Shown piece by piece: positions 3,637 through 32,041 of a stretch of 64,000 bases of DNA. A program made the position numbers and the translations under genes. The DNA is taken from the NCBI RefSeq assembly GCF_002854065.1, contig NZ_CP024153.1; one strand, 5' to 3'. The stretch's first letter is position 1. Each line of letters starts with the position of its first letter. Below the pieces are notes generated by a model, which did not search any database, was not told the DNA's origin, and saw only the letters and a list, made by a program, of their open reading frames with translations. This DNA comes from Escherichia coli. Its GTDB lineage: Bacteria; Pseudomonadota; Gammaproteobacteria; Enterobacterales; Enterobacteriaceae.

Positions 3637-4293
3637 CTAGTCAGGAAAAACAACAATACCCAACGCTTCGAGAAGCTGTTCTTGTTGCCAGCTGGCAATT
3701 TTGATACCTGATGTATCGACTTTTCGAGGATCTAAACCGTCGAGTTCGGCGTGACATAAATTAGCACCCTGTAGGCTAAACTGTCCCCAGACATCTTCAG
3801 AAAAAACACCTCGACTTAAGTCTGACTCTTTCAGTGATGCGCCCGCGAGGTGAGTCCCTATCCAGCGATTTTCAAACAGCTCACATTTTTCTAAACAGAC
3901 CCGCTCCATATTGGCATAAGACAGGTTACATCCAGTAATAAAGGCTGAGCAAAAGTACATACGATTACTCACTTGATTGGCAAAGTTTGCTCGGGAAAAG
4001 TTGGCCCCTTTTAAATCACACTCACGTAACTCAATACCGTAGCAATTGGCGTTACTAAAGTTTGCCATCGCAAGCTGGCATTGTTGGAAACTTGCATCGC
4101 GAAGGTCTGCGACATCAAAATGGCAACCTTCGATATCACCCTGTTCAATGAACTTGCAGTTAATAAATGTCGCATCACGCAAGTTAGCACGTCGAAAATC
4201 GCATCGGATAAAGGTGCAAGCAGTGAAAGTAATATCACTTAGATCTTGATGTGAAAAACTGTGGTGTCGATATGTGTGACGGTAGGTTTCCAT
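3637..4293 (-). CDS. qnrS: Qnr pentapeptide-repeat quinolone-resistance protein, QnrS family (closest to recalled QnrS2)
   Basis: 218 aa, METYRHTYRHHSFSHQDLSDITFTACTFIRCDFRRANLRD... with tandem pentapeptide repeats and C-terminal ...LEALGIVVFPD. Confidence 0.9.
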   Translation of the reverse strand: METYRHTYRHHSFSHQDLSDITFTACTFIRCDFRRANLRDATFINCKFIEQGDIEGCHFDVADLRDASFQQCQLAMANFSNANCYGIELRECDLKGANFSRANFANQVSNRMYFCSAFITGCNLSYANMERVCLEKCELFENRWIGTHLAGASLKESDLSRGVFSEDVWGQFSLQGANLCHAELDGLDPRKVDTSGIKIASWQQEQLLEALGIVVFPD

Positions 4294-5157: not shown

Positions 5158-5343
5158 CTAGGTATCAGATGGCGACAATCTCGCCAATGCTGCGTTTAAA
5201 GTCGGCCTAGACACACCAAAGTGTTTTGCAACTTCAGCTTTCGTTATCTCTACATCCGACAGCATGGCCCTTGCCTTCCTGGCGTCTTCATCTGACATGG
5301 CCAAGGGTCGCCCACCGCGTCGCCCTCTTGCCCTTGCTGCCTC
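5158..5343 (-). pseudogene. Serine recombinase (resolvase/invertase) 3' fragment with C-terminal HTH, truncated by IS26
   Basis: Protein tail ...GRRGGRPLAMSDEDARKARAMLSDVEITKAEVAKHFGVSRPTLNAALARL resembles a resolvase C-terminal DNA-binding domain; upstream part replaced by IS26. Confidence 0.55.
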
Positions 5344-6163
5344 GGCACTGTTGCAAATAGTCGGTGGTGATAAACTTATCATCCCCTTTTGCTGATGGAG
5401 CTGCACATGAACCCATTCAAAGGCCGGCATTTTCAGCGTGACATCATTCTGTGGGCCGTACGCTGGTACTGCAAATACGGCATCAGTTACCGTGAGCTGC
5501 AGGAGATGCTGGCTGAACGCGGAGTGAATGTCGATCACTCCACGATTTACCGCTGGGTTCAGCGTTATGCGCCTGAAATGGAAAAACGGCTGCGCTGGTA
5601 CTGGCGTAACCCTTCCGATCTTTGCCCGTGGCACATGGATGAAACCTACGTGAAGGTCAATGGCCGCTGGGCGTATCTGTACCGGGCCGTCGACAGCCGG
5701 GGCCGCACTGTCGATTTTTATCTCTCCTCCCGTCGTAACAGCAAAGCTGCATACCGGTTTCTGGGTAAAATCCTCAACAACGTGAAGAAGTGGCAGATCC
5801 CGCGATTCATCAACACGGATAAAGCGCCCGCCTATGGTCGCGCGCTTGCTCTGCTCAAACGCGAAGGCCGGTGCCCGTCTGACGTTGAACACCGACAGAT
5901 TAAGTACCGGAACAACGTGATTGAATGCGATCATGGCAAACTGAAACGGATAATCGGCGCCACGCTGGGATTTAAATCCATGAAGACGGCTTACGCCACC
6001 ATCAAAGGTATTGAGGTGATGCGTGCACTACGCAAAGGCCAGGCCTCAGCATTTTATTATGGTGATCCCCTGGGCGAAATGCGCCTGGTAAGCAGAGTTT
6101 TTGAAATGTAAGGCCTTTGAATAAGACAAAAGGCTGCCTCATCGCTAACTTTGCAACAGTGCC
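5344..6163 (+). mobile_element. IS26 copy 2
   Basis: Identical to copy 1 including terminal repeats. Confidence 0.95.
5389..6111 (+). CDS. tnpA: IS26 transposase Tnp26 (Gly184 form)
   Basis: Identical 240-aa ORF. Confidence 0.95.
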   Translation: MLMELHMNPFKGRHFQRDIILWAVRWYCKYGISYRELQEMLAERGVNVDHSTIYRWVQRYAPEMEKRLRWYWRNPSDLCPWHMDETYVKVNGRWAYLYRAVDSRGRTVDFYLSSRRNSKAAYRFLGKILNNVKKWQIPRFINTDKAPAYGRALALLKREGRCPSDVEHRQIKYRNNVIECDHGKLKRIIGATLGFKSMKTAYATIKGIEVMRALRKGQASAFYYGDPLGEMRLVSRVFEM

Positions 6164-6409
6164 GTCGATTGAAACACGGTGCATCTGATCGGACAGGGCG
6201 TCTAAGAGCGGCGCAATACGTCTGATCTCATCGGCCGGCGATACAGGCCTCGCGTCCGGATGGCTGGCGGCCGGTCCGACATCCACGACGTCTGATCCGA
6301 CTCGCAGCATTTCGATCGCCGCGGTGACAGCGCCGGCGGGGTCTAGCCGCCGGCTCTCATCGAAGAAGGAGTCCTCGGTGAGATTCAGAATGCCGAACAC
6401 CGTCACCAT
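6164..6409 (-). pseudogene. sul1: sul1 dihydropteroate synthase, first ~82 codons only; truncated by IS26
   Basis: [82 protein letters not shown] then IS26. Confidence 0.9.
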
Positions 6410-6750
6410 GGCGTCGGCCTCCGCAGCGACTTCCACGATGGGGATCGGGCGAGCAAAAAGGCAGCAATTATGAGCCCCATACCTACAAAGCCCCACGCAT
6501 CAAGCTTTTGCCCATGAAGCAACCAGGCAATGGCTGTAATTATGACGACGCCGAGTCCCGACCAGACTGCATAAGCAACACCGACAGGGATGGATTTCAG
6601 AACCAGAGAAAGAAAATAAAATGCGATGCCATAACCGATTATGACAACGGCGGAAGGGGCAAGCTTAGTAAAGCCCTCGCTAGATTTTAATGCGGATGTT
6701 GCGATTACTTCGCCAACTATTGCGATAACAAGAAAAAGCCAGCCTTTCAT
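6403..6750 (-). CDS. qacEdelta1: QacEdelta1 small multidrug-resistance efflux protein (class 1 integron 3'-CS)
   Basis: 115 aa [81 protein letters not shown]... Confidence 0.9.
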
Positions 6751-6972
6751 GATATATCTCCCAATTTGTGTAGGGCTTATTATGCACGCTTAAAAATAAT
6801 AAAAGCAGACTTGACCTGATAGTTTGGCTGTGAGCAATTATGTGCTTAGTGCATCTAACGCCGCCATAAACGGCGACAGGGTGGCGCGCCTATTGCGCAT
6901 AAAATGGCGAAGCCATGCGCAACAGGCGCGGAATCTCTGGCGTCCGGTTTGATGGCTTTGTTATGCAAAGGA

Positions 6973-7425
6973 CTAGTCTTCAATGACGTGTAAACCACGG
7001 CGCTTTAAGTCCTCCAACGAATCCAACATTCCCCTTATTAATTCAACAGGATGCCCCTCCCAGTCTTCAACAACGCCAACAATTCTCAAGGGTTCGCAGG
7101 TTCTATAGGACTGTGTTGGATTACCGGGAAATCTTTTGTTCGTAAGATTCGGATCGTCTTCGAACGGTCCTGTTGGCTCAACTATGTATATGTAGCCGCG
7201 ACCCTCGAGGCCAGACAGTGACATAGCAAGTTCAGCTCCCCAAACTGCTGGCTCCATCAAGGCTGAAAAGTAGATGTGCTTAAGAATACGACCGTCCTCG
7301 AAATGAGAGATGAACCCTGTGGTTAGCAAGTCACCAATCGCCAAATTGGCTTTGGTTCCATGATAGAACGGTCCTTGAACCTGCTTGTAATTATCATGAG
7401 AGATGGGAATCCAATCTTTTACCAT
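6973..7425 (-). CDS. arr-3: Arr-3 rifampin ADP-ribosyltransferase (integron cassette)
   Basis: 150 aa MVKDWIPISHDNYKQVQGPFYHGTKANLAIGDLLTTGF... Confidence 0.9.
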   Translation of the reverse strand: MVKDWIPISHDNYKQVQGPFYHGTKANLAIGDLLTTGFISHFEDGRILKHIYFSALMEPAVWGAELAMSLSGLEGRGYIYIVEPTGPFEDDPNLTNKRFPGNPTQSYRTCEPLRIVGVVEDWEGHPVELIRGMLDSLEDLKRRGLHVIED

Positions 7426-7509
7426 TTTAAGACCCTTAATTGTTGGGATTTGGCTGCATAACGCCTGAAATAAGCCGTGCCGCGAAGCGGCATCGGCTTG
7501 ATTGAATTG

Positions 7510-8142
7510 TTAGACGGCAAACTCGAGCCAATACTTGTGCAGGCCAACAATATTAGACGAGCACAGCATGGGCATTGCCGCTTTGATCTTCTCCAGTGAC
7601 CAATTCCACCACTCCATCTCCAGAAGCAATGAAATTTCCTCATCGGTGAAGCGTTTCTTAATCTTCTTAGCGGGATTGCCGCCAACGATAGCGTAAGGCT
7701 CCACATCTTTTGTCACCAACGAGCGGCTGCCTATCACCGCACCGTGCCCGATCTTGATTCCGGGCATGACCATTGCCTCAGAGCCGATCCAAACGTCATT
7801 GCCAATGACAGTATTACCTGCTTTTTGGAAGGCATCGAGTGCGCTTGAGAATGCAGGTTCTTCCTGCATATAAAAGAACGGGAAAGATGATGCCCAGTCG
7901 TACCGATGCCCCTGATTGCCAGCCATGATAAAGGAAGCCCCACTCCCGATAGAGCAGAAACTACCGATGATCAACTTATCAACGTCATCACGGTCCGGAA
8001 ACAGATACCGTGCGCAGTCATCGAATGAGTGCCCATGATAGTAGCCAGAGTAATAGCTGTACCGCCCAACTTTGATATTGGGGTTCTTCACTTGCTCAGA
8101 AAGCAGCTTGCCTTTGAAGGGGCTATCAAAGTAGTTGGTCAT
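7510..8142 (-). CDS. catB3: CatB3 xenobiotic (chloramphenicol) acetyltransferase, full length (integron cassette)
   Basis: 210 aa [42 protein letters not shown]... with hexapeptide-repeat acetyltransferase character. Confidence 0.9.
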
Positions 8143-8279
8143 AAGAGATCCCGCGGTCTGTGACTTTGCCGTCTAACGTTTGAAATAAGGGGCGCCGAGC
8201 GCCAGCGAGGGGAGCCAAAAGCTTGCTTTTGGCCGTCCCGACTTGATTGAAGGGTTGGGCGATTTTGCCATTAGATTTT

Positions 8280-9110
8280 TTATAAATTTAGTGTGTTTAG
8301 AATGGTGATCGCATTTTTCTTGGCTTTTATGCTTGATGTTAAATTCGACCCCAAGTTTCCTGTAAGTGCGGACACAAAAACATATTTATGTCCTGATTTG
8401 CTTATAATAAACCCTTCAAACCATCCGTTTTGTAAGGTTCTATTTGCTGTGAATCCTGCACCAGTTTTCCCATACAGTTTTGTACTATTATCCAGATCTT
8501 GTAGATACATGTTCTCTATGGTGTTTTCTATGGCTGAGTTTTTAACTGGGAGATTGTGATTAATAATTTTACGCAGGAATTGAATTTGTTCTTCTGGTGA
8601 AATTTTTAAGCTACTTTCGAGCCATGCTTCTGTTAATCCGTTGTTTCTTTCTTTATCTCCAGAGAAGTCTTGATTTCCATAATCAAAATCTTTGAGATAA
8701 TTCTTGATTTTATTTAATCCAATTTTTTGGGTTATTTCTTGCGAAACCCAAACAACAGAAAATTGCATCCACGTCTTTGGTGTATGATTGCTGTTCCAGA
8801 TCTCCATTCCTTTGGGGGTTTTATCCCATTTGAATATGGTTTTCTGATCTATTATTTCCGCATCAAATGCCATAAGTGATAATGCGATCTTGAAAGTTGA
8901 ATCTGGTGCCATTTGCGTTGCACACTTTGCTTTATTGAATTGAGCAATTTCAGCGTTTGTGGATGCATCGTAAAGTAAAAAACAACCTTCAGTTCCTTCA
9001 AATAATGGAGATGCAACAGTAGAGATATCTGTTGATGCACTGGCGCTGCTGTAGATAATATTTGCAATTATTAAAAAAATAGCGAAGTTGATATGTATTG
9101 TGTTTTTCAT
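8280..9110 (-). CDS. blaOXA-1: OXA-1 class D beta-lactamase (integron cassette)
   Basis: 276 aa from internal start MKNTIHINFAIFLIIANIIYSSASASTDISTV...; STFK active-site motif present; the ORF track extends 15 codons upstream. Confidence 0.93.
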   Translation of the reverse strand: MKNTIHINFAIFLIIANIIYSSASASTDISTVASPLFEGTEGCFLLYDASTNAEIAQFNKAKCATQMAPDSTFKIALSLMAFDAEIIDQKTIFKWDKTPKGMEIWNSNHTPKTWMQFSVVWVSQEITQKIGLNKIKNYLKDFDYGNQDFSGDKERNNGLTEAWLESSLKISPEEQIQFLRKIINHNLPVKNSAIENTIENMYLQDLDNSTKLYGKTGAGFTANRTLQNGWFEGFIISKSGHKYVFVSALTGNLGSNLTSSIKAKKNAITILNTLNL

Positions 9111-9240
9111 AATAAGTATTGGTTTGGTAAAGGGCTTAATTTTAACGGCTAACAATTAATGAGGCTCCGGGTTCGCCCAACGTTTGACATGAGGGGCGGC
9201 CAAGGGCGCCAGCCCTTGGACGTCCCCCTCGATGGAAGGG

Positions 9241-9840
9241 TTAGGCATCACTGCGTGTTCGCTCGAATGCCTGGCGTGTTTGAACCATGTACACGGCTGG
9301 ACCATATGGGGTGGTTACGGTACCTTGCCTCTCAAACCCCGCTTTCTCGTAGCATCGGATCGCTCGCAAGTTGCTCGGCGACGGGTCCGTTTGGATCTTG
9401 GTGACCTCGGGATCATTGAACAGCAACTCAACCAGAGCTCGAACCAGCTTGGTTCCCAAGCCTTTGCCCAGTTGTGATGCATTCGCCAGTAACTGGTCTA
9501 TTCCGCGTACTCCTGGATCGGTTTCTTCTTCCCACCGTCCGTCCCCGCTTCCAAGAGCAACGTACGACTGGGCATACCCAATCGGCTCTCCATTCAGCAT
9601 TGCAATGTATGGAGTGACGGACTCTTGCGCTAAAACGCTTGGCAAGTACTGTTCCTGTACGTCAGCAAGTGTCGGGCGTGCTTCTTCTCCGCCCCACCAC
9701 TCGACGATATGAGATCGATTTAGCCACTCATAGAGCATCGCAAGGTCATGCTCAGTCATGAGGCGCAGTGTGACGGAATCGTTGCTGTTGGTCACGATGC
9801 TGTACTTTGTGATGCCTAACTTTGTTTTTGCGTTGCTCAT
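9241..9840 (-). CDS. aac(6')-Ib-cr: AAC(6')-Ib-cr aminoglycoside/fluoroquinolone acetyltransferase (Trp-to-Arg and Asp-to-Tyr variant); alternative GTG start at 9879
   Basis: ...[28 protein letters not shown]... and ...[15 protein letters not shown]... carry both -cr-defining substitutions. Confidence 0.9.
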
Positions 9841-9958
9841 GATGTCTAACTCCCAATTTGTGTAGGGCTTATTATGCACGCTTAAAAATAATAAAAGCAG
9901 ACTTGACCTGATAGTTTGGCTGTGAGCAATTATGTGCTTAGTGCATCTAACTTTGTTT

Positions 9959-10023
9959 TAGGGCGACTGCCCTGCTGCGTAACATCGTTGCTGCTCCATA
10001 ACATCAAACATCGACCCACGGCG
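9959..10023 (-). other. attI1 recombination site of integron A (approximate)
   Basis: 5'-CS sequence ...GCCCTAAAACAAAG/TTAG... junction with the first cassette. Confidence 0.5.
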
Positions 10024-10086
10024 TAACGCGCTTGCTGCTTGGATGCCCGAGGCATAGACTGTACAAAAAAACAGTCATAACAAGCC

Positions 10087-10768
10087 ATGAAAACCGCCAC
10101 TGCGCCGTTACCACCGCTGCGTTCGGTCAAGGTTCTGGACCAGTTGCGTGAGCGCATACGCTACTTGCATTACAGTTTACGAACCGAACAGGCTTATGTC
10201 CACTGGGTTCGTGCCTTCATCCGTTTCCACGGTGTGCGTCACCCGGCAACCTTGGGCAGCAGCGAAGTCGAGGCATTTCTGTCCTGGCTGGCGAACGAGC
10301 GCAAGGTTTCGGTCTCCACGCATCGTCAGGCATTGGCGGCCTTGCTGTTCTTCTACGGCAAGGTGCTGTGCACGGATCTGCCCTGGCTTCAGGAGATCGG
10401 AAGACCTCGGCCGTCGCGGCGCTTGCCGGTGGTGCTGACCCCGGATGAAGTGGTTCGCATCCTCGGTTTTCTGGAAGGCGAGCATCGTTTGTTCGCCCAG
10501 CTTCTGTATGGAACGGGCATGCGGATCAGTGAGGGTTTGCAACTGCGGGTCAAGGATCTGGATTTCGATCACGGCACGATCATCGTGCGGGAGGGCAAGG
10601 GCTCCAAGGATCGGGCCTTGATGTTACCCGAGAGCTTGGCACCCAGCCTGCGCGAGCAGCTGTCGCGTGCACGGGCATGGTGGCTGAAGGACCAGGCCGA
10701 GGGCCGCAGCGGCGTTGCGCTTCCCGACGCCCTTGAGCGGAAGTATCCGCGCGCCGGGCATTCCTGGC
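10087..10768 (+). pseudogene. intI1: intI1 class 1 integrase, 3'-truncated by IS26 (about 227 of 337 codons)
   Basis: [53 protein letters not shown]...; ORF runs into the IS26 terminal repeat at 10769. Confidence 0.9.
10174..10202 (-). promoter_or_regulatory. Integron Pc cassette promoter, TGGACA-N17-TAAACT (PcH1-type)
   Basis: Hexamers read on minus strand inside the intI1 5' region. Confidence 0.6.
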
Positions 10769-11588
10769 GGCACTGTTGCAAATAGTCGGTGGTGATAAAC
10801 TTATCATCCCCTTTTGCTGATGGAGCTGCACATGAACCCATTCAAAGGCCGGCATTTTCAGCGTGACATCATTCTGTGGGCCGTACGCTGGTACTGCAAA
10901 TACGGCATCAGTTACCGTGAGCTGCAGGAGATGCTGGCTGAACGCGGAGTGAATGTCGATCACTCCACGATTTACCGCTGGGTTCAGCGTTATGCGCCTG
11001 AAATGGAAAAACGGCTGCGCTGGTACTGGCGTAACCCTTCCGATCTTTGCCCGTGGCACATGGATGAAACCTACGTGAAGGTCAATGGCCGCTGGGCGTA
11101 TCTGTACCGGGCCGTCGACAGCCGGGGCCGCACTGTCGATTTTTATCTCTCCTCCCGTCGTAACAGCAAAGCTGCATACCGGTTTCTGGGTAAAATCCTC
11201 AACAACGTGAAGAAGTGGCAGATCCCGCGATTCATCAACACGGATAAAGCGCCCGCCTATGGTCGCGCGCTTGCTCTGCTCAAACGCGAAGGCCGGTGCC
11301 CGTCTGACGTTGAACACCGACAGATTAAGTACCGGAACAACGTGATTGAATGCGATCATGGCAAACTGAAACGGATAATCGGCGCCACGCTGGGATTTAA
11401 ATCCATGAAGACGGCTTACGCCACCATCAAAGGTATTGAGGTGATGCGTGCACTACGCAAAGGCCAGGCCTCAGCATTTTATTATGGTGATCCCCTGGGC
11501 GAAATGCGCCTGGTAAGCAGAGTTTTTGAAATGTAAGGCCTTTGAATAAGACAAAAGGCTGCCTCATCGCTAACTTTGCAACAGTGCC
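10769..11588 (+). mobile_element. IS26 copy 3
   Basis: 820 bp with both terminal repeats. Confidence 0.95.
10814..11536 (+). CDS. tnpA: IS26 transposase Tnp26 (Gly184 form)
   Basis: Identical 240-aa ORF. Confidence 0.95.
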   Translation: MLMELHMNPFKGRHFQRDIILWAVRWYCKYGISYRELQEMLAERGVNVDHSTIYRWVQRYAPEMEKRLRWYWRNPSDLCPWHMDETYVKVNGRWAYLYRAVDSRGRTVDFYLSSRRNSKAAYRFLGKILNNVKKWQIPRFINTDKAPAYGRALALLKREGRCPSDVEHRQIKYRNNVIECDHGKLKRIIGATLGFKSMKTAYATIKGIEVMRALRKGQASAFYYGDPLGEMRLVSRVFEM

Positions 11589-11628
11589 AGACAAAAGGCT
11601 GCCTCATCGCTAACTTTGCAACAGTGCC
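11589..11628 (+). repeat. Tandem second copy of the last 40 bp of IS26 (remnant of an earlier IS26)
   Basis: AGACAAAAGGCTGCCTCATCGCTAACTTTGCAACAGTGCC occurs twice in direct succession (11549-11588 and 11589-11628). Confidence 0.85.
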
Positions 11629-12137
11629 CCCTCCCGCACGATGATCGTGCCGTGATCGAAATCCAGATCCTTGACCCGCAGTTGCAAACCCTCACTGATC
11701 CGCATGCCCGTTCCATACAGAAGCTGGGCGAACAAACGATGCTCGCCTTCCAGAAAACCGAGGATGCGAACCACTTCATCCGGGGTCAGCACCACCGGCA
11801 AGCGCCGCGACGGCCGAGGTCTTCCGATCTCCTGAAGCCAGGGCAGATCCGTGCACAGCACCTTGCCGTAGAAGAACAGCAAGGCCGCCAATGCCTGACG
11901 ATGCGTGGAGACCGAAACCTTGCGCTCGTTCGCCAGCCAGGACAGAAATGCCTCGACTTCGCTGCTGCCCAAGGTTGCCGGGTGACGCACACCGTGGAAA
12001 CGGATGAAGGCACGAACCCAGTGGACATAAGCCTGTTCGGTTCGTAAACTGTAATGCAAGTAGCGTATGCGCTCACGCAACTGGTCCAGAACCTTGACCG
12101 AACGCAGCGGTGGTAACGGCGCAGTGGCGGTTTTCAT
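11629..12137 (-). pseudogene. intI1: intI1 class 1 integrase, 3'-truncated at a different point (about 170 codons retained)
   Basis: Same N-terminus as the other intI1, ends ...[12 protein letters not shown] then IS26-end sequence. Confidence 0.9.
12022..12050 (+). promoter_or_regulatory. Integron Pc cassette promoter, TGGACA-N17-TAAACT (PcH1-type)
   Basis: Hexamers read directly in the 5'-CS. Confidence 0.6.
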
Positions 12138-12211
12138 GGCTTGTTATGACTGTTTTTTTGTACAGTCTATGCCTCGGGCATCCAAGCAGCAAGCGCGTTA
12201 CGCCGTGGGTC

Positions 12212-12277
12212 GATGTTTGATGTTATGGAGCAGCAACGATGTTACGCAGCAGGGCAGTCGCCCTAAAACAAAGTTAG
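12212..12277 (+). other. attI1 recombination site of integron B (approximate)
   Basis: 5'-CS ...GCCCTAAAACAAAG/TTAG junction with the dfrA12 cassette. Confidence 0.5.
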
Positions 12278-12281
12278 CCAT

Positions 12282-12779
12282 ATGAACTCGGAATCAGTAC
12301 GCATTTATCTCGTTGCTGCGATGGGAGCCAATCGGGTTATTGGCAATGGTCCTAATATCCCCTGGAAAATTCCGGGTGAGCAGAAGATTTTTCGCAGACT
12401 CACTGAGGGAAAAGTCGTTGTCATGGGGCGAAAGACCTTTGAGTCTATCGGCAAGCCTCTACCGAACCGTCACACATTGGTAATCTCACGCCAAGCTAAC
12501 TACCGCGCCACTGGCTGCGTAGTTGTTTCAACGCTGTCGCACGCTATCGCTTTGGCATCCGAACTCGGCAATGAACTCTACGTCGCGGGCGGAGCTGAGA
12601 TATACACTCTGGCACTACCTCACGCCCACGGCGTGTTTCTATCTGAGGTACATCAAACCTTCGAGGGTGACGCCTTCTTCCCAATGCTCAACGAAACAGA
12701 ATTCGAGCTTGTCTCAACCGAAACCATTCAAGCTGTAATTCCGTACACCCACTCCGTTTATGCGCGTCGAAACGGCTAA
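12282..12779 (+). CDS. dfrA12: DfrA12 trimethoprim-resistant dihydrofolate reductase (cassette)
   Basis: 165 aa MNSESVRIYLVAAMGANRVIGNGPNIPWKIPGEQKIFRRLTEGKVVVMGRKTFESIG... Confidence 0.93.
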   Translation: MNSESVRIYLVAAMGANRVIGNGPNIPWKIPGEQKIFRRLTEGKVVVMGRKTFESIGKPLPNRHTLVISRQANYRATGCVVVSTLSHAIALASELGNELYVAGGAEIYTLALPHAHGVFLSEVHQTFEGDAFFPMLNETEFELVSTETIQAVIPYTHSVYARRNG

Positions 12780-12890
12780 CCATTCCGTCAACGGGACGCC
12801 AAAATGCTGCGCATTTTGGTTCCCTCCGCTGCGCTCCGGCTCTCGTTACGTCCAACGTTAGCACCACTGAAACCCAGCTTTATTTAGCTC

Positions 12891-13181
12891 ATGTTTATTC
12901 AAACGGCATTTAGCTTTTCAGGCGTTATTCAGTGCCTGTTTTGCCTTTTTTCCGGGCTTCGCCTGCATGGGCTGCGCAGGTTTTCAGTCTTTTTGGCCTC
13001 TAGCCCTTGCGTAGCAAGCGCAAGCAGCTATCGTTTTTGCAGTGCTGTGCCGCCTCGGTGGCGCAGCGTTTTTTCACGGTTAGCGCCCGTCGCCAAATTC
13101 AAGTTATCCGTTTTGGCTTCTGGTTCTAACATTTCGGTCAAGCCGACCCGCATTCTGCGGTCGGCTTACCTCGCCCGTTAG
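12891..13181 (+). CDS. gcuF: gcuF/orfF gene cassette of unknown function
   Basis: 96-aa ORF between dfrA12 and aadA2, the position of the classic array. Confidence 0.75.
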   Translation: MFIQTAFSFSGVIQCLFCLFSGLRLHGLRRFSVFLASSPCVASASSYRFCSAVPPRWRSVFSRLAPVAKFKLSVLASGSNISVKPTRILRSAYLAR

Positions 13182-13186
13182 ACATC

Positions 13187-13978
13187 ATGAGGGAAGCGGT
13201 GACCATCGAAATTTCGAACCAACTATCAGAGGTGCTAAGCGTCATTGAGCGCCATCTGGAATCAACGTTGCTGGCCGTGCATTTGTACGGCTCCGCAGTG
13301 GATGGCGGCCTGAAGCCATACAGCGATATTGATTTGTTGGTTACTGTGGCCGTAAAGCTTGATGAAACGACGCGGCGAGCATTGCTCAATGACCTTATGG
13401 AGGCTTCGGCTTTCCCTGGCGAGAGCGAGACGCTCCGCGCTATAGAAGTCACCCTTGTCGTGCATGACGACATCATCCCGTGGCGTTATCCGGCTAAGCG
13501 CGAGCTGCAATTTGGAGAATGGCAGCGCAATGACATTCTTGCGGGTATCTTCGAGCCAGCCATGATCGACATTGATCTAGCTATCCTGCTTACAAAAGCA
13601 AGAGAACATAGCGTTGCCTTGGTAGGTCCGGCAGCGGAGGAATTCTTTGACCCGGTTCCTGAACAGGATCTATTCGAGGCGCTGAGGGAAACCTTGAAGC
13701 TATGGAACTCGCAGCCCGACTGGGCCGGCGATGAGCGAAATGTAGTGCTTACGTTGTCCCGCATTTGGTACAGCGCAATAACCGGCAAAATCGCGCCGAA
13801 GGATGTCGCTGCCGACTGGGCAATAAAACGCCTACCTGCCCAGTATCAGCCCGTCTTACTTGAAGCTAAGCAAGCTTATCTGGGACAAAAAGAAGATCAC
13901 TTGGCCTCACGCGCAGATCACTTGGAAGAATTTATTCGCTTTGTGAAAGGCGAGATCATCAAGTCAGTTGGTAAATGA
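13187..13978 (+). CDS. aadA2: AadA2 streptomycin/spectinomycin adenylyltransferase ANT(3'')-Ia family (cassette)
   Basis: 263 aa MREAVTIEISNQLSEVLSVIERHLESTLLAVHLYGSAVDGGLKPYSDIDLLVTV... Confidence 0.93.
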   Translation: MREAVTIEISNQLSEVLSVIERHLESTLLAVHLYGSAVDGGLKPYSDIDLLVTVAVKLDETTRRALLNDLMEASAFPGESETLRAIEVTLVVHDDIIPWRYPAKRELQFGEWQRNDILAGIFEPAMIDIDLAILLTKAREHSVALVGPAAEEFFDPVPEQDLFEALRETLKLWNSQPDWAGDERNVVLTLSRIWYSAITGKIAPKDVAADWAIKRLPAQYQPVLLEAKQAYLGQKEDHLASRADHLEEFIRFVKGEIIKSVGK

Positions 13979-14032
13979 TGTCTAACAATTCGTTCAAGCC
14001 GACCGCGCTACGCGCGGCGGCTTAACTCCGGC

Positions 14033-14132
14033 GTTAGATGCACTAAGCACATAATTGCTCACAGCCAAACTATCAGGTCAAGTCTGCTTTTATTATTTTT
14101 AAGCGTGCATAATAAGCCCTACACAAATTGGG
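14033..14132 (+). other. First ~100 bp of the class 1 integron 3'-CS, cut before qacEdelta1
   Basis: Same sequence as 6760-6858 (inverted) up to ...ACACAAATTGGG, then unrelated low-GC DNA. Confidence 0.8.
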
Positions 14133-14462
14133 TAAAACCGCAAGAACTGTAATTATGAATTTGTCAGAAAACTATCCGTACAAGGAAGTGTATGAAAAAT
14201 GTCTGGTATAATAAAGATATCATCTTGAAAATCGAGTGTTGCTCTGTGGATAACTTGCAGGGTTTAATAAGTATCTTTACTCAAAAGTTGCAATCAATAA
14301 TTTATTGAAAAAGATTGAAAGGTGGTGGTAAATAATGTTACAATGTGGGAGTATCAGTTTAAATTCTTCGTGAAATAGTGTTCTTTTAAGCTAATAAAAA
14401 ATGCACGTGGAATTTAGGTCAAAGAAAAGTAAAGAAAAATTTATTTATGGAGGTAAAAAAGG

Positions 14463-14855
14463 ATGAGTCAAGTTGTTGATTTTTTAAATGAAGCAAAAAC
14501 TTTTTATTTTGCAACCGTTGAAGGAGACCAGCCAAGGGTCAGACCGTTTAATGCAGCCATGGAGAGGAATGGCAAGGTCTATCTTGGTACAACCAATCAG
14601 AAAAAAGTTTATCAGCAGTTATTGGCAAATTCAAAGGTGGAAGTCTCAGGTATGGCAAAAGGAAAATGGATTCGGCTCACCGGCGAAGCCGTAATTGATG
14701 ATACCGTGGAAGCAAGGGAAGCAATGCTTGAAGCAAATCCGCCTTTGAGAGATTGGTATAGCGCTGATGATGGGAAATTCACCGTATTTTATTTGAAAAA
14801 CATGCAGGCAGTTTTATATTCCTTTACAGGAGATCCGGAGATATTAGATAATTAA
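14463..14855 (+). CDS. Pyridoxamine-5'-phosphate-oxidase-like FMN-binding family protein (hypothetical) in low-GC segment
   Basis: 130-aa ORF with AT-rich upstream region and RBS-like GGAGG; family assignment by general sequence character, unverified. Confidence 0.5.
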   Translation: MSQVVDFLNEAKTFYFATVEGDQPRVRPFNAAMERNGKVYLGTTNQKKVYQQLLANSKVEVSGMAKGKWIRLTGEAVIDDTVEAREAMLEANPPLRDWYSADDGKFTVFYLKNMQAVLYSFTGDPEILDN

Positions 14856-15095
14856 TCAAAACATGCAGCCCAGTGGTAGAATGAACTGACCCCCATAAGT
14901 TAGACCAAAAATCTAACTTATGGGAGGTCATTTTTTATGGCAAAATACAGTTATGAATTTAAGTTACAAGTTGTTCAAGCATATTTAGATTTTTATTTTG
15001 TCCGTTTTGTCTAGCTTACCGAAAGCCAGACTCAGCAAGAATAAAATTTTTATTGTCTTTCGGTTTTCTAGTGTAACGGACAAAACCACTCAAAA

Positions 15096-15133
15096 TAAAA
15101 AAGATACAAGAGAGGTCTCTCGTATCTTTTATT
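15096..15133 (-). terminator. Bidirectional hairpin terminator downstream of bleO
   Basis: A-run, stem GATACAAGAGAG/CTCTCGTATC, T-run read directly. Confidence 0.5.
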
Positions 15134-15174
15134 CAGCAATCGCGCCCGATTGCTGAACAGATTAATAATAGATT

Positions 15175-15552
15175 TTAGCTTTTTATTTGTTGAAAAAAGC
15201 TAATCAAATTGTTGTCGGGATCAATTACTGCAAAGTCTCGTTCATCCCACCACTGATCTTTTAATGATGTATTGGGGTGCAAAATGCCCAAAGGCTTAAT
15301 ATGTTGATATAATTCATCAATTCCCTCTACTTCAATGCGGCAACTAGCAGTACCAGCAATAAACGACTCCGCACCTGTACAAACCGGTGAATCATTACTA
15401 CGAGAGCGCCAGCCTTCATCACTTGCCTCCCATAGATGAATCCGAACCTCATTACACATTAGAACTGCGAATCCATCTTCATGGTGAACCAAAGTGAAAC
15501 CTAGTTTATCGCAATAAAAACCTATACTCTTTTTAATATCCCCGACTGGCAA
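15175..15552 (-). CDS. bleO: Bleomycin-binding protein, glyoxalase/VOC fold (BleO-like, Gram-positive type)
   Basis: 125 aa MPVGDIKKSIGFYCDKLGFTLVHHEDGFAVLMCNEVRIHLWEASDEGW... matches recalled pUB110-type Ble. Confidence 0.75.
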   Translation of the reverse strand: MPVGDIKKSIGFYCDKLGFTLVHHEDGFAVLMCNEVRIHLWEASDEGWRSRSNDSPVCTGAESFIAGTASCRIEVEGIDELYQHIKPLGILHPNTSLKDQWWDERDFAVIDPDNNLISFFQQIKS

Positions 15553-15648: not shown

Positions 15649-16470
15649 GGCACTGTTGCAAAGTTAGCGATGAGGCAGCCTTTTGTCTTATTCAAAGGCC
15701 TTACATTTCAAAAACTCTGCTTACCAGGCGCATTTCGCCCAGGGGATCACCATAATAAAATGCTGAGGCCTGGCCTTTGCGTAGTGCACGCATCACCTCA
15801 ATACCTTTGATGGTGGCGTAAGCCGTCTTCATGGATTTAAATCCCAGCGTGGCGTTGATTATCCGTTTCAGTTTGCCATGATCGCATTCAATCACGTTGT
15901 TCCGGTACTTAATCTGTCGGTGTTCAACGTCAGACGGGCACCGGCCTTCGCGTTTTGAGCAGAGCAAGCGCGCGACCATAGGCGGGCGCTTTATCCGTGT
16001 TGATGAATCGTGGGAATCTGCCACTTCTTCACGTTGTTGAGGATTTTACCCAGAAACCGGTATGCAGCTTTGCTGTTACGACGGGAGGAGAGATAAAAAT
16101 CGACAGTGCGGCCCCGGCTGTCGACGGCCCGGTACAGATACGCCCAGCGGCCATTGACCTTCACGTAGGTTTCATCCATGTGCCACGGGCAAAGATCGGA
16201 AGGGTTACGCCAGTACCAGCGCAGCCGTTTTTCCATTTCAGGCGCATAACGCTGAACCCAGCGGTAAATCGTGGAGTGATCGACATTCACTCCGCGTTCA
16301 GCCAGCATCTCCTGCAGCTCACGGTAACTGATGCCGTATTTGCAGTACCAGCGTACGGCCCACAGAATGATGTCACGCTGAAAATGCCGGCCTTTGAATG
16401 GGTTCATGTGCAGCTCCATCAGCAAAAGGGGATGATAAGTTTATCACCACCGACTATTTGCAACAGTGCC
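15649..16470 (-). mobile_element. IS26 copy 4 (822 bp; two 1-bp insertions)
   Basis: Both terminal repeats present; extra A at about 16010 (GGGAATCTG vs GGGATCTG) and extra T at about 15953 (GCGTTTTGAGC vs GCGTTTGAGC). Confidence 0.95.
15701..16425 (-). pseudogene. tnpA: IS26 tnpA disrupted by frameshift (split into 144-aa and 107-aa ORFs; Asn184 form)
   Basis: ORFs 15991-16425 and 15701-16024 together cover Tnp26 with a frame change between them. Confidence 0.85.
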
Positions 16471-16584: not shown

Positions 16585-16673
16585 GAACTATTGAAGTAAT
16601 CAATCAAATTTTATAGGCTGATAGCCAAGTAACAACCACCAATGATATGCCAGGTAAAATCAGGGGACGTAAA

Positions 16674-18110
16674 ATGAGTACTCTTGATGTTCAGAAGCTC
16701 AAGGATGATGCCGTCGAATGGGCCTTAACTCATGGTGTTGCTTTCAAGGAATCGTCGTATTCCGCAGTGCATACCCCGTTTACCCTGACACCAACACCTA
16801 TCAGCCGTAAATCCTATCAGTACTTAAAGAATGCAACAGGAATACTCAGCAAATTAATCTATTCAGTTTCTGAGGATCATGATTTTTTGTACTCTGCGAT
16901 TTATCCCATCAAGGCCGGGAATGCCTTCTTTTCAGCCCTCCTGAACATGCATCAACAAATCCATTCATCATCAAGGCATGCTCCTCGATTACCATTACTC
17001 ATTATGCGTAGCGACTTTATGGATGATAATCGTGATGGGTTCAGGCTTATAGAGTTCAATGGTATAGCTGCAGGAATGGGGCCGTTTGGTCAGCGGATAC
17101 ATGATCTGCATCACTATCTACAACGGCAATATCCCGCTGTCTTTTCTGATTTATCGAATCAGGCAACAGGGGCGCTTGTCGACAATCAAGCGATCGAAGG
17201 GTTATCAGCAGCGATTTGTCAGGCAACTTGCAGAATTAAGCAGGAGTTCGGAGACCCCGGCCCTGCCAGGTTCCTGATGATTGTGCAGGAGAATGAAAAT
17301 AATGTGTTTGATCAACACTTGCTTGAGCTCGCCCTCCAGCAAAAAGGAATCGAAACGCATCGCAGGACTTTTCGTGAACTGCATAATCAATTGAGTACAG
17401 GCGCCGACAACAGGCTCATTCTCGAGGGTGTAGGCCCACTTGATACCGTCTACTTACGTGCCGGATATCAGTATTCTGATTATGAAGCATTCAATATCGA
17501 TGAGCAGGAGTGTTGTCAGGCGCTGATGGCGACCCGAGTATTCATTGAGCAGCACCGGGTTGCAGTGAACGCCACAGTTGGCCAGCAACTGGCGACCAGC
17601 AAGCGAGTACAAATGCTGCTCTCGCAATTGGGTTACGACGAGTTTGTCGCATTTGGATTAACACTGCAGGAAGCTAAAATAGCAAAAACGATACTGGGTG
17701 AGATGTTACCCATCAGCCCGGATAGTATCAACCTTGCAAAAGAGTCTCCTTCGGAAACCTGGGTTCTCAAAAATCAGGGTGAAGGCGGGGGGCATTGTCT
17801 GTTTGGTGCGGATATCCTGACAAAACTGACGGAACTCACTCCACAACAATATCAGTCCTGGTCGCTGATGCGCCGTTTACACCCTCAGCCCCGAGCTATG
17901 CCCACCTTGATTGTGCGTAAAGGGGAGTTGCATAAGGTGAATGATTTGATAAGCGAACTTGGAATGTTCTCCGTGCAGACAGATAACAATCCCTCCAGTG
18001 CTGAGCACAGTTTTGCTGGATATCTAATTCGTAGCAAATCAGCTGAATCGACAGAGGGAGGGGTCCATAGTGGACAAGGTGTTTTAGACTCGCTGGTATA
18101 CAGCGATTAG
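16674..18110 (+). CDS. Eukaryotic-type glutathione synthetase-like ATP-grasp protein (ORF track start 16647)
   Basis: Blocks resembling recalled human GSS: TPFTLTPT, IEFNGIAAGMGP, LMIVQENENNVFDQ...IETHRRTFREL, VYLRAGYQ, KNQGEGGGHCLFG. Confidence 0.7.
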   Translation: MSTLDVQKLKDDAVEWALTHGVAFKESSYSAVHTPFTLTPTPISRKSYQYLKNATGILSKLIYSVSEDHDFLYSAIYPIKAGNAFFSALLNMHQQIHSSSRHAPRLPLLIMRSDFMDDNRDGFRLIEFNGIAAGMGPFGQRIHDLHHYLQRQYPAVFSDLSNQATGALVDNQAIEGLSAAICQATCRIKQEFGDPGPARFLMIVQENENNVFDQHLLELALQQKGIETHRRTFRELHNQLSTGADNRLILEGVGPLDTVYLRAGYQYSDYEAFNIDEQECCQALMATRVFIEQHRVAVNATVGQQLATSKRVQMLLSQLGYDEFVAFGLTLQEAKIAKTILGEMLPISPDSINLAKESPSETWVLKNQGEGGGHCLFGADILTKLTELTPQQYQSWSLMRRLHPQPRAMPTLIVRKGELHKVNDLISELGMFSVQTDNNPSSAEHSFAGYLIRSKSAESTEGGVHSGQGVLDSLVYSD

Positions 18111-19919: not shown

Positions 19920-20601
19920 TCAGACGGGATTTTGCTTATCAATTATTGAGAACAGAAATTTTCCTGAATCATCAATACTATACTTAGCAAGTAAAGGTGT
20001 TTTCTCATTTATCTGCTTGAGAGCAGGATCAAGGAAAGATCGTTTCAACTCTGCCAAGTTCTTCTGTTGGGATTCCGGCAAAAGGAAACGGTCATTTAAC
20101 CAAGCATGAGTAGTAACCCATAAGCCTGAAGATTTGAATTGAGCAAGACTTTCATAAAGGCGGATCGTCCGTGGATTTCGAAGACTGCCACAATCGCGGA
20201 GCGAGTAGGTGGTGAACTGGTTCGTCAGGCCGTAAATGTACCGCAGGAGTTTATGGTTAAATTCGATTTCCCAGATACCACGAGCTGATCGGCTGCCAGC
20301 CTCTGTTAGCCAGGGGCGCGCGACGCAGTCAAAACTCCCTTCTTTCGGGTAAAAGATTACCGCAGAACGGCTTAACTCAAACACGCCTTCTTTAACATCC
20401 TTGATAGCCTGGTTACGGCTTACCTGAAAAATTTGCTGATAGTCAGCCACCTTTACTTTGAAAGTAGAGTCACCGAGTACAGCCATCTCATCATCATCTT
20501 CGCTTACTGAAGCTGTGAAATACGTCTGCATAAGACATAACCAGAGAACGCGCTTTGCTTTTAGCGAGAGGTAGTAAGCAGCTTCGGTAAGCTCGTTAGA
20601 C
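19920..20601 (-). pseudogene. Rep_3-family (RepE-like) replication initiator, N-terminally truncated by IS26
   Basis: ...NELTEAAYYLSLKAKRVLWL...IRLYESLAQF... parallels recalled F RepE ([20 protein letters not shown]...MRLYESLCQY); first 17 residues of the ORF come from the IS26 end. Confidence 0.75.
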
Positions 20602-21421
20602 GGCACTGTTGCAAAGTTAGCGATGAGGCAGCCTTTTGTCTTATTCAAAGGCCTTACATTTCAAAAACTCTGCTTACCAGGCGCATTTCGCCCAGGGGAT
20701 CACCATAATAAAATGCTGAGGCCTGGCCTTTGCGTAGTGCACGCATCACCTCAATACCTTTGATGGTGGCGTAAGCCGTCTTCATGGATTTAAATCCCAG
20801 CGTGGCGTTGATTATCCGTTTCAGTTTGCCATGATCGCATTCAATCACGTTGTTCCGGTACTTAATCTGTCGGTGTTCAACGTCAGACGGGCACCGGCCT
20901 TCGCGTTTGAGCAGAGCAAGCGCGCGACCATAGGCGGGCGCTTTATCCGTGTTGATGAATCGTGGGATCTGCCACTTCTTCACGTTGTTGAGGATTTTAC
21001 CCAGAAACCGGTATGCAGCTTTGCTGTTACGACGGGAGGAGAGATAAAAATCGACAGTGCGGCCCCGGCTGTCGACGGCCCGGTACAGATACGCCCAGCG
21101 GCCATTGACCTTCACGTAGGTTTCATCCATGTGCCACGGGCAAAGATCGGAAGGGTTACGCCAGTACCAGCGCAGCCGTTTTTCCATTTCAGGCGCATAA
21201 CGCTGAACCCAGCGGTAAATCGTGGAGTGATCGACATTCACTCCGCGTTCAGCCAGCATCTCCTGCAGCTCACGGTAACTGATGCCGTATTTGCAGTACC
21301 AGCGTACGGCCCACAGAATGATGTCACGCTGAAAATGCCGGCCTTTGAATGGGTTCATGTGCAGCTCCATCAGCAAAAGGGGATGATAAGTTTATCACCA
21401 CCGACTATTTGCAACAGTGCC
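20602..21421 (-). mobile_element. IS26 copy 5 (variant: Asn184 plus one synonymous change)
   Basis: 820 bp; ...KLKRIINATLGFKS... Confidence 0.95.
20654..21376 (-). CDS. tnpA: IS26 transposase Tnp26 (Asn184 form)
   Basis: 240-aa ORF; GGC to AAC at codon 184 relative to copies 1-3. Confidence 0.95.
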   Translation of the reverse strand: MLMELHMNPFKGRHFQRDIILWAVRWYCKYGISYRELQEMLAERGVNVDHSTIYRWVQRYAPEMEKRLRWYWRNPSDLCPWHMDETYVKVNGRWAYLYRAVDSRGRTVDFYLSSRRNSKAAYRFLGKILNNVKKWQIPRFINTDKAPAYGRALALLKREGRCPSDVEHRQIKYRNNVIECDHGKLKRIINATLGFKSMKTAYATIKGIEVMRALRKGQASAFYYGDPLGEMRLVSRVFEM

Positions 21422-21491
21422 GATTAGAGCACTATAAAGAACTAAAGAAATGAAGATACAAAGATACGAATATCTGAATAAAAACAGAAAA

Positions 21492-21612
21492 ATGCGTACC
21501 CATCCACCTTTCAGTGCGTACCCATCCACCTTTCAGTGCGCAGCCATCCACCTTTCATGAAAATTACAGTGCGTACCCATCCACCTTTCAGTGCGTACCC
21601 ATCCACCTTTCA
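21492..21612. repeat. Five direct 22-bp iteron-like repeats GTGCGTACCCATCCACCTTTCA (origin-like)
   Basis: Read directly; four near-perfect copies and one variant (GCGCAGCCATCCACCTTTCA). Confidence 0.75.
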
Positions 21613-21783
21613 TTTTGAGGCGACAAAAAACAACACCTATCTTAATGAAATTATTGATAAAAAAACTGGCACAATGTTTGCAGAATAAGTTAGAGTAAGT
21701 TAAAGATCTTAAAGTAGATCTACCGATCTACATTTAAGATCTTAAAAACAAGAAGTTTAATAAGCAAAAAAACACAAAAAATC

Positions 21784-23183: not shown

Positions 23184-23325
23184 GGCACTGTTGCAAAGTT
23201 AGCGATGAGGCAGCCTTTTGTCTTATTCAAAGGCCTTACATTTCAAAAACTCTGCTTACCAGGCGCATTTCGCCCAGGGGATCACCATAATAAAATGCTG
23301 AGGCCTGGCCTTTGCGTAGTGCACG
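23184..23325 (-). mobile_element. IS26 fragment (142 bp of one end, internally truncated)
   Basis: GGCACTGTTGCAAAGTTAGCGATGAGG...GCGTAGTGCACG matches the IS26 end, then diverges. Confidence 0.9.
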
Positions 23326-26457: not shown

Positions 26458-27264
<807 letters not shown>

Positions 27265-27457: not shown

Positions 27458-28277
27458 GGCACTGTTGCAAATAGTCGGTGGTGATAAACTTATCATCCCC
27501 TTTTGCTGATGGAGCTGCACATGAACCCATTCAAAGGCCGGCATTTTCAGCGTGACATCATTCTGTGGGCCGTACGCTGGTACTGCAAATACGGCATCAG
27601 TTACCGTGAGCTGCAGGAGATGCTGGCTGAACGCGGAGTGAATGTCGATCACTCCACGATTTACCGCTGGGTTCAGCGTTATGCGCCTGAAATGGAAAAA
27701 CGGCTGCGCTGGTACTGGCGTAACCCTTCCGATCTTTGCCCGTGGCACATGGATGAAACCTACGTGAAGGTCAATGGCCGCTGGGCGTATCTGTACCGGG
27801 CCGTCGACAGCCGGGGCCGCACTGTCGATTTTTATCTCTCCTCCCGTCGTAACAGCAAAGCTGCATACCGGTTTCTGGGTAAAATCCTCAACAACGTGAA
27901 GAAGTGGCAGATCCCACGATTCATCAACACGGATAAAGCGCCCGCCTATGGTCGCGCGCTTGCTCTGCTCAAACGCGAAGGCCGGTGCCCGTCTGACGTT
28001 GAACACCGACAGATTAAGTACCGGAACAACGTGATTGAATGCGATCATGGCAAACTGAAACGGATAATCAACGCCACGCTGGGATTTAAATCCATGAAGA
28101 CGGCTTACGCCACCATCAAAGGTATTGAGGTGATGCGTGCACTACGCAAAGGCCAGGCCTCAGCATTTTATTATGGTGATCCCCTGGGCGAAATGCGCCT
28201 GGTAAGCAGAGTTTTTGAAATGTAAGGCCTTTGAATAAGACAAAAGGCTGCCTCATCGCTAACTTTGCAACAGTGCC
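27458..28277 (+). mobile_element. IS26 copy 6 (Asn184 variant); left arm of Tn6010-like oqx unit
   Basis: 820 bp with terminal repeats. Confidence 0.95.
27503..28225 (+). CDS. tnpA: IS26 transposase Tnp26 (Asn184 form)
   Basis: 240-aa ORF. Confidence 0.95.
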   Translation: MLMELHMNPFKGRHFQRDIILWAVRWYCKYGISYRELQEMLAERGVNVDHSTIYRWVQRYAPEMEKRLRWYWRNPSDLCPWHMDETYVKVNGRWAYLYRAVDSRGRTVDFYLSSRRNSKAAYRFLGKILNNVKKWQIPRFINTDKAPAYGRALALLKREGRCPSDVEHRQIKYRNNVIECDHGKLKRIINATLGFKSMKTAYATIKGIEVMRALRKGQASAFYYGDPLGEMRLVSRVFEM

Positions 28278-31800: not shown

Positions 31801-32018
31801 CCGTTGATCGCTTCCTCCAGCGGCGTCGCCACGGTCTCGGCAATCACTTTCGGGTTGGCGCCGGGATACTCCGCGCGCACCTGGACGCTCGGCGGGACGA
31901 CATCCGGATATTCGCTCACCGGCAGCAGTGGGATAGCGATTAACCCGGTGATAAAAATTAAAATCGACAGCACCGCGGCGAAAATCGGCCTGTCGATAAA
32001 AAAGCGGGAAAAGTCCAT
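28866..32018 (-). CDS. oqxB: OqxB RND multidrug efflux transporter
   Basis: 1050 aa MDFSRFFIDRPIFAAVLSILIFITGLIAIPLLPVSEYPDVVPPSVQVRAEYPGANPKV... Confidence 0.93.
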   Translation of the reverse strand: MDFSRFFIDRPIFAAVLSILIFITGLIAIPLLPVSEYPDVVPPSVQVRAEYPGANPKVIAETVATPLEEAINGVENMMYMKSVAGSDGVLVTTVTFRPGTDPDQAQVQVQNRVAQAEARLPEDVRRLGITTQKQSPTLTLVVHLFSPGGKYDSLYMRNYATLKVKDELARLPGVGQIQIFGSGEYAMRVWLDPNKVAARGLTASDVVTAMQEQNVQVSAGQLGAEPLPQESDFLISINAQGRLHTEEEFGNIILKTAQDGSLVRLRDVARIEMGSGSYALRSQLNNKDAVGIGIFQSPGANAIDLSNAVRAKMAELATRFPEDMQWAAPYDPTVFVRDSIRAVVQTLLEAVVLVVLVVILFLQTWRASIIPLIAVPVSVVGTFSILYLLGFSLNTLSLFGLVLAIGIVVDDAIVVVENVERNIEEGLAPLAAAHQAMREVSGPIIAIALVLCAVFVPMAFLSGVTGQFYKQFAVTIAISTVISAINSLTLSPALAALLLKPHGAKKDLPTRLIDRLFGWIFRPFNRFFLRSSNGYQGLVGKTLGRRGAVFAVYLLLLCAAGVMFKVVPGGFIPTQDKLYLIGGVKMPEGSSLARTDAVIRKMSEIGMNTEGVDYAVAFPGLNALQFTNTPNTGTVFFGLKPFDQRKHTAAEINAEINAKIAQIQQGFGFSILPPPILGLGQGSGYSLYIQDRGGLGYGALQSAVNAMSGAIMQTPGMHFPISTYQANVPQLDVQVDRDKAKAQGVSLTDLFGTLQTYLGSSYVNDFNQFGRTWRVMAQADGPYRESVEDIANLRTRNNQGEMVPIGSMVNISTTYGPDPVIRYNGYPAADLIGDADPRVLSSSQAMTHLEELSKQILPNGMNIEWTDLSFQQATQGNTALIVFPVAVLLAFLVLAALYESWTLPLAVILIVPMTMLSALFGVWLTGGDNNVFVQVGLVVLMGLACKNAILIVEFARELEIQGKGIMEAALEACRLRLRPIVMTSIAFIAGTIPLILGHGAGAEVRGVTGITVFSGMLGVTLFGLFLTPVFYVTLRKLVTRRKPVQEDLPA

Positions 32019-32041
32019 GTCTTGGATTCTCTGATTAGGGA

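Follow-up and report, generated by a model that had tools for sequence, protein, structure and literature searches.

What is the sequence of about 100 nt that recurs in a resistance region of Escherichia coli, and how did its copies come to lie where they do? The DNA analysed here is a stretch of 64,000 nt (hereafter the window) of contig NZ_CP024153.1 from assembly GCF_002854065.1, in which an initial annotation had reported a sequence of about 100 bp present three times, twice in direct and once in inverted orientation. Alignment together with exact string comparison bore this out. The three copies of a 100-nt segment are 100% identical, with no mismatch among them; the full repeat is GTTAGATGCACTAAGCACATAATTGCTCACAGCCAAACTATCAGGTCAAGTCTGCTTTTATTATTTTTAAGCGTGCATAATAAGCCCTACACAAATTGGG, and in the sense of qacE the shared 100 nt run from GTTAGATGCACTAAGC to CACAAATTGGG. 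Copy 1 lies at 6760-6859 (minus strand), copy 2 at 9852-9951 (minus strand) and copy 3 at 14033-14132 (plus strand). Copies 1 and 2 run in the same direction and start 3092 bp from one another, while copy 3 is inverted with respect to both, and a repeat finder returned the same pairs (D12, I19 and I20). String comparison revealed no further copy within the 64-kb window. The coordinates reported earlier hold overall, except that copy 2 had been extended to 9958, which is 7 nt too far because attI1 runs from 9952 onward; its true end is 9951. The pairwise alignment proposed as a check thus gave full identity, not the less than 90% at which recombination between the copies had been considered unlikely. 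Outside the shared 100 nt, copies 1 and 2 have two extra nucleotides (AG) in common on the qacE-proximal side, and copies 1 and 3 share four (GGCG) on the attC side because their attC ends are similar. Three identical 100-mers are far beyond chance, and an assembly artefact is of no concern, as each junction recurs in many independent plasmid records.

We conclude with high confidence that the repeat is the first 100 nt of the 3'-conserved segment (3'-CS) of class 1 integrons, i.e. the 5' untranslated leader of the qacE cassette, and that two integron modules bring its three copies. Copy 1 begins exactly at the attC boundary of arr-3 (G|TTAGAT) and ends 9 nt before the start codon of qacEdelta1, and is thus the start of a 3'-CS. 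It shows the succession of a class 1 3'-CS, namely the arr-3 attC, the core and then qacEdelta1 with a truncated sul1. Compared with the known 3'-CS start, in which the promoter Pq (also Pqac or P3) precedes qacEdelta1-sul1, copy 1 is the same and qacEdelta1 follows; unlike in a standard 3'-CS, sul1 is here cut by IS26 after about 83 codons. Copy 3 likewise carries the attC boundary but is without qacEdelta1-sul1, which identifies it as a truncated 3'-CS.

Copy 2 equals copy 1 over the 100 nt plus AG, which amounts to 102 nt counted from the G of GTTAGAT and to 101 nt counted from the crossover point. This is the qacE101 leader of the aac(6')-Ib-cr cassette. According to a 2022 review (PMC8876359), aac(6')-Ib-cr, aacA29a/b and aadA16 owe their promoter to qacE101, a 101-bp piece of the qacE 5'UTR to which they are fused; the review cites Raherison et al. 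2017 for it, and a second paper (PMC5437533) credits the same work. Copy 2 shows no difference from qacE101, be it in sequence, in its place between attI1 and the gene, or in its GGGAG|TTAGAC end, and on its other side it abuts attI1 directly (...AAACAAAG|TTAGAT). In copy 3, by contrast, the 3'-CS breaks off at nt 100 (...AATTGGG|TAAAACC), 2 nt before qacE101 would end, and runs into DNA that is no cassette, which makes it a truncated 3'-CS and not a strict qacE101. The three labels of the initial annotation (3'-CS start, aac(6')-Ib-cr leader, and truncated 3'-CS after aadA2) were therefore all right, as judged by NCBIfam searches and alignment. Taken together, the three-copy segment is the published qacE101/Pq leader and a fixed part of two common resistance modules; it is already known and ordinary, and its importance is small beyond correct annotation. 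In practical terms, short-read assembly and PCR mapping of integrons can be misled by an exact repeat of 100 bp that occurs in two or three copies per integron.

A preprint surveying qac genes places Pq in the ~100 nt immediately upstream of the start codon of qacE or qacEdelta1 and reports that it is active in lacZ fusions (10.1101/768630). Our own scan of 6700-6900 for strict consensus promoters and terminators returned no sigma-70 site, and inspection of the 100-nt segment by hand showed weak hexamer pairs only. A search of 6500-7100 against Rfam (E≤10) gave no RNA family and no guanidine riboswitch. Since the consensus scan found no strong site, the promoter claim made here is that of the literature, and the exact promoter position is taken from secondary sources. 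On that basis each copy may initiate transcription toward its downstream DNA, that is, copy 1 toward qacEdelta1, copy 2 toward aac(6')-Ib-cr in addition to the PcH1 promoter, and copy 3 toward an ISEcp1-like fragment and a Nim-like gene. The segment explains how aac(6')-Ib-cr can be expressed independently of Pc, even where IS26 has removed the 5'-conserved segment (5'-CS), as in the common IS26-aac(6')-Ib-cr-blaOXA-1 units; this was published in 2017.

To place the copies in their context, we mapped the region by NCBIfam searches and by BLAST of IS26 and intI1 against the window. The map shows two integron modules that lie head-to-head on one common IS26 (10768-11588, plus strand). Module A is the remnant of an In37-type integron (the name is taken from papers) and starts with a further IS26 at 5343-6163, which belongs to the same orientation group as the common IS26 and truncates sul1. 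The remaining sul1 (6164-6406, minus strand) covers positions 1-83 of 278 of the Sul1 model. It is followed by qacEdelta1 (6403-6750, minus strand; NCBIfam NF000276 QacE, 206 bits), which lies immediately downstream of copy 1. The cassette array at 6860-9819 (minus strand) was identified by NCBIfam and holds arr-3 (6973-7425), catB3 (7510-8142), blaOXA-1 (8280-9110) and the aacA4 cassette with the aac(6')-Ib-cr coding sequence (9241-9840), all on the minus strand; in the sense of the cassettes the order is aacA4(cr), blaOXA-1, catB3, arr-3. The assignment of AAC(6')-Ib-cr is clear from a score of 427.7 bits with NF033074 and from a 199-aa product with the motifs ...GDGRWEEE... and ...TTPYGP.... 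The -cr substitutions are Trp to Arg and Asp to Tyr, with the wild-type residues taken from PMC3656343 and general knowledge. Copy 2 lies between this gene and the 5'-CS at 9952-10767 (minus strand), which comprises attI1, the promoter PcH1 (10174-10202, without the P2 GGG insertion) and an intI1 gene (10087-10767, plus strand) cut by IS26 to 228 codons. Module A holds copies 1 and 2 by inheritance, the former as an ordinary 3'-CS start and the latter as an old piece that belongs permanently to the aac(6')-Ib-cr cassette.

Module B lies on the other side of the common IS26 and begins with a 5'-CS at 11629-12277 (plus strand), inverted with respect to that of module A and consisting of intI1 cut to 170 codons, PcH1 (12022-12050) and attI1. 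Its In27-type cassette array (12278-14032, plus strand; the name again from the literature) holds dfrA12 (12282-12779), gcuF (12891-13181) and aadA2 (13187-13978), all on the plus strand, and the attC of aadA2 ends at 14032/14033, where copy 3 begins. An inverted IS26 (15649-16470) bounds the module after bleO. Cassette content and order match those of In37 (aacA4cr-blaOXA-1-catB3-arr-3) and In27 (dfrA12-gcuF-aadA2) bounded by IS26, with the difference that IS26 has here shortened both intI1 genes, to 228 and 170 codons. For In37 and In27 lying head-to-head, there was no single contiguous match among the PLSDB matches listed. Neither module is a functional integron, as intI1 retains only nt 1-682 in one and nt 1-509 in the other out of 1014 nt (complete, 337 codons). 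With both genes truncated and no other intI1 copy in the 64-kb window, any integrase-mediated event would need IntI1 in trans.

The initial annotation had proposed that the copies provide homology for deletion or inversion between the two integrons. Exchange is indeed possible in principle because the identity is 100%; the predicted inversion junctions, however, were not found among the PLSDB matches listed. Whether the importance of the copies lies chiefly in RecA-dependent recombination can be judged from both sides, and we consider it unlikely. With 100 nt at 100% identity and with orientations suited to deletion and inversion, the copies qualify as substrates. They exceed the roughly 25-50 bp that RecA needs as a minimum for exchange in E. 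coli. Recombination of copy 1 with copy 2 would delete 3092 bp and with them all four cassettes, so that the repeat permits, in principle, the loss of a whole cassette array and would leave an empty, In0-like integron with attI1 joined to the 3'-CS. For copy 3 paired with copy 1 or 2, the outcome would be an inversion of 4-7 kb between the integrons. Against this stands that neither attI1 plus core plus ISEcp1-like flank nor arr-3 attC plus core plus ISEcp1-like flank was found in any PLSDB record at ≥80% coverage among the matches listed. Of the matches listed for aadA2-attC plus core plus aacA4cr, all were arrays with a different aadA at 94.7% identity, and as the aadA differs, these aadA-attC|leader|aacA4cr arrays are not products of the present pair. 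The deletion product, for its part, is indistinguishable from an IntI1 excision of the array. Moreover, the same 30 kb contain longer repeats, namely seven 820-bp IS26 copies in both orientations and a perfect inverted 5'-CS pair of 649 bp. This pair (9947-10595 and 11629-12277; attI1, PcH1 and the start of intI1) surrounds the central IS26 and is far better suited to inversion than the 100-nt copies. IS26 itself recombines efficiently by a separate route. IS26 and the 5'-CS repeats should therefore dominate rearrangement here, with the 100-nt copies as possible but minor, hypothetical substrates.

The copies had also been held to account for the fusion at the 5' end of the aac(6')-Ib-cr cassette. 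This stands insofar as the leader is a piece of 3'-CS, but the coding start derives from an aadA16-type cassette and attI1. After the 100-nt core, copy 2 reads AG, TTAGACATCATGAGCAACGCA and AAAACAAAG, followed by TTAGGCATC... From copy 2 to the point where the aacA4 cassette begins, the linker (9820-9851, minus strand) thus measures 32 nt, or 2 + 21 + 9 nt, with every nucleotide accounted for. AG corresponds to nt 101-102 of the 3'-CS. The following 21 nt (TTAGACATCATGAGCAACGCA) are identical to the start of the aadA16 cassette and hold the ATG (9840-9838) with the codons for MSNA (ATG AGC AAC GCA); joined to AG, they make up the 23 nt that follow the core in front of aadA16. The last 9 nt (AAAACAAAG) are identical to the end of attI1, and the TTAGGC behind them is the usual start of the aacA4 cassette. 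The aadA16 protein begins MSNAVPAEIS, and its first four residues, MSNA, are shared with AAC(6')-Ib-cr. Read from the sequence, the start codon of AAC(6')-Ib-cr is borrowed from an aadA16-type cassette and not from the 3'-CS, the piece of 3'-CS being non-coding. The aadA16-type start is shared by aadA6, aadA10 and aadA11. In the papers surveyed, we did not find it stated that AAC(6')-Ib-cr borrowed its start codon and MSNA from an aadA16/aadA6-type cassette.

We then asked PLSDB for the distribution of these junctions; all counts are lower bounds, obtained from the best 5000 matches per probe. A probe of 281 nt that spans aac(6')-Ib-cr, the linker, the core and attI1, for which coverage of ≥80% requires both junctions, detected the structure in at least 734 plasmids, and the listed matches from Aeromonas, Klebsiella, Raoultella and E. 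coli were 100% identical. The aadA16 fusion occurs in at least about 440 PLSDB records. A K. pneumoniae plasmid with the array aacA4cr-arr-3-dfrA27-aadA16 has three direct copies of the segment (before aacA4cr, before aadA16 and at the 3'-CS), and two are present in a P. aeruginosa plasmid, one in front of aac(6')-29 and one at the 3'-CS. The junction GGGAG|TTAGAC is present in all fusions, those to aac(6')-Ib-cr, to aadA16 in the K. pneumoniae plasmid and to aac(6')-29 in the P. aeruginosa plasmid. The unit of leader, linker and aacA4(cr) also follows an aadA attC at internal array positions in at least 18 PLSDB records, and for this reason we regard it as behaving as one cassette, with G|TTAGAT as its left and the aacA4 attC as its right boundary. 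A search for other fusion partners by the pattern ...AATTGGGAGB had no matches in a collection of genome contigs, which is uninformative in this respect. The only match in a metagenome collection, equally uninformative, was an aadA16-type fusion (ERZ724503 NODE-44572, 1-900). In this contig unrelated small ORFs follow the fusion instead of a 3'-CS.

How could such a unit have formed? The parental 3'-CS reads G|ATAT at the fusion point. Francia et al. reportedly described in 1993 a pattern GWTMW for secondary sites of IntI1. As the leader stops at GGGAG directly before the cassette start TTAGAC, and as the parental G|ATAT fits this pattern, an IntI1 event at a secondary site is likely. In a first step, leader and cassette were most likely joined by such an event at G|ATAT within the leader of qacE; alternatively, an IntI1 deletion of the qacE ORF and attC between that site and the next cassette would yield the same junction. 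In a second step, a later deletion would have joined codon 4 of the aadA16-type cassette to the attI1 remnant before aacA4. The fused leader-aac(6')-Ib-cr unit now moves as one cassette.

The identity of the leader to the 3'-CS starts of both integrons would also fit a fusion made in this very molecule, by exchange between copies of the neighbouring integrons. We regard this as highly improbable, because the structure of attI1, leader and gene is found in at least 734 plasmids from many genera, most of them without the In27-bleO module, and the same leader stands within a different array in the K. pneumoniae plasmid. In addition, the qacE101 leader is already a described feature according to PMC8876359, and the coding part ATG AGC AAC GCA matches the start of the aadA16 cassette and not the 3'-CS. 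It is scarcely credible that IntI1 inserted these 100 nt three times as a separate, ORF-less cassette equipped with an attC, even though the segment opens with a core site (GTTAGAT), is followed in copy 2 by another (GTTAGAC) and is termed a 'pseudo-cassette' in PMC8876359: there is no attC in either strand of the 100 nt, single-strand DNA folding gave -5.9 and -6.6 kcal/mol with z-scores of +1.3 and +1.1, so that most shuffled sequences folded better (as a control, the attC hairpin of aadA2 gave z-scores of -3.7 and -4.3), a correctly oriented inverse core site RYYYAAC is absent from the segment, and both intI1 genes are truncated here. We read copy 2 as inherited and not as formed in this molecule.

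Copy 3 is joined to DNA of a different kind. Next to it lies a right-end fragment of an ISEcp1-like element of the IS1380 family (14133-14418, plus strand; about 88% identical to ISEcp1), which ends in CACGTGGAATTTAGG; its 286 bp align at about 88% to the ISEcp1 right end in thousands of records. Compared with the ISEcp1 right end known from upstream of blaCTX-M, the fragment shows this alignment of about 88% and a similar terminal inverted repeat, but it is divergent and without a transposase gene. It is 99.6% identical to an E. faecalis plasmid, where the match extends 53 bp further and is followed by an IS6-family element. The fragment carries TTGAAA (14315) and TACAAT (14339), which lie where ISEcp1 has its outward promoter. 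Behind it follow a pyridoxamine-5'-phosphate-oxidase/Nim-like gene (14463-14855, plus strand) and bleO (15175-15552, minus strand), and this region (14463-15552) is Gram-positive-type cargo with a low GC content (0.375).

The structure of aadA2-attC, core and ISEcp1-like fragment was found in at least 44 PLSDB records by a balanced 340-nt probe at ≥80% coverage; an earlier query, with at least 359 records, was dominated by the bleO segment and does not prove the junction of copy 3. As the same junction structure recurs in these 44 or more records, copy 3 was inherited with its module. In other E. coli plasmids IS26 adjoins the same ISEcp1-like fragment at a point 48 bp deeper inside it. Copy 3 and the Enterococcus-type donor sequence share no microhomology where they meet. 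We considered a cut of copy 3 by the same IntI1-type event as in copy 2 and rejected it, given that the break lies 2 nt earlier, that the partner is the interior of an ISEcp1-like element and not a cassette start, and that microhomology is absent. The 3'-CS of module B was severed behind nt 100 and became linked to an ISEcp1-like fragment carrying Enterococcus-type DNA with bleO. The arrangement suggests that the DNA was mobilised by an ISEcp1-style, one-ended process in a Gram-positive host and passed to Enterobacteriaceae afterwards. The 3'-CS break points of these independent events almost coincide, at nt 102 in the cassette fusions and at nt 100 in the ISEcp1-like junction. One could speculate that breaks occur preferentially where the qacE leader ends, or that retention of Pq was selected and copy 3 is a captured promoter, but we hold this to be improbable. 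If it were true, copy 3 and the outward promoter of the ISEcp1-like fragment would express a Gram-positive Nim-like gene in Enterobacteriaceae.

Besides the three copies, the window holds several further features. At 11549-11628 the terminal 40 nt of IS26 occur twice in tandem before the truncated intI1, so that an extra 40-nt IS26 end (11589-11628, plus strand) follows the complete element. The E. coli plasmid p14EC017b has the same IS26/intI1 junction without the extra 40 nt, which could be a remnant of a second IS26, the trace of an insertion of IS26 into IS26, or an assembly error. Full IS26 copies are present in one orientation at 1981-2800, 5343-6163, 10768-11588, 27458-28277 and 33474-34293 and inverted at 15649-16470 and 20602-21422, and a fragment of 142 nt lies at 23184-23325. 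These copies bracket qnrS (3637-4293), both integron remnants, aph(3')-II (26470-27264) and oqxAB (28866-33217). Beside the second inverted IS26, at 21487-21635, we observed about six 22-nt direct repeats (TTTCAGTGCGTACCCATCCACC-like), with a RepE-like replication gene nearby (region 19920-20648). The repeats look like iterons of a plasmid origin whose rep region was cut by IS26. The stretch 33475-54000 matches E. coli and Salmonella plasmids with the sil silver/copper resistance cluster at 99-100% identity, and the window therefore comes from a multiresistance plasmid. Finally, TIGR01986, a model for glutathione synthase of the eukaryote type, matched an ORF of 487 aa at 16647-18110 with E 5e-70 and 236 bits, under its cutoff of 330 bits; this ORF is an unusual passenger gene amid the resistance region.
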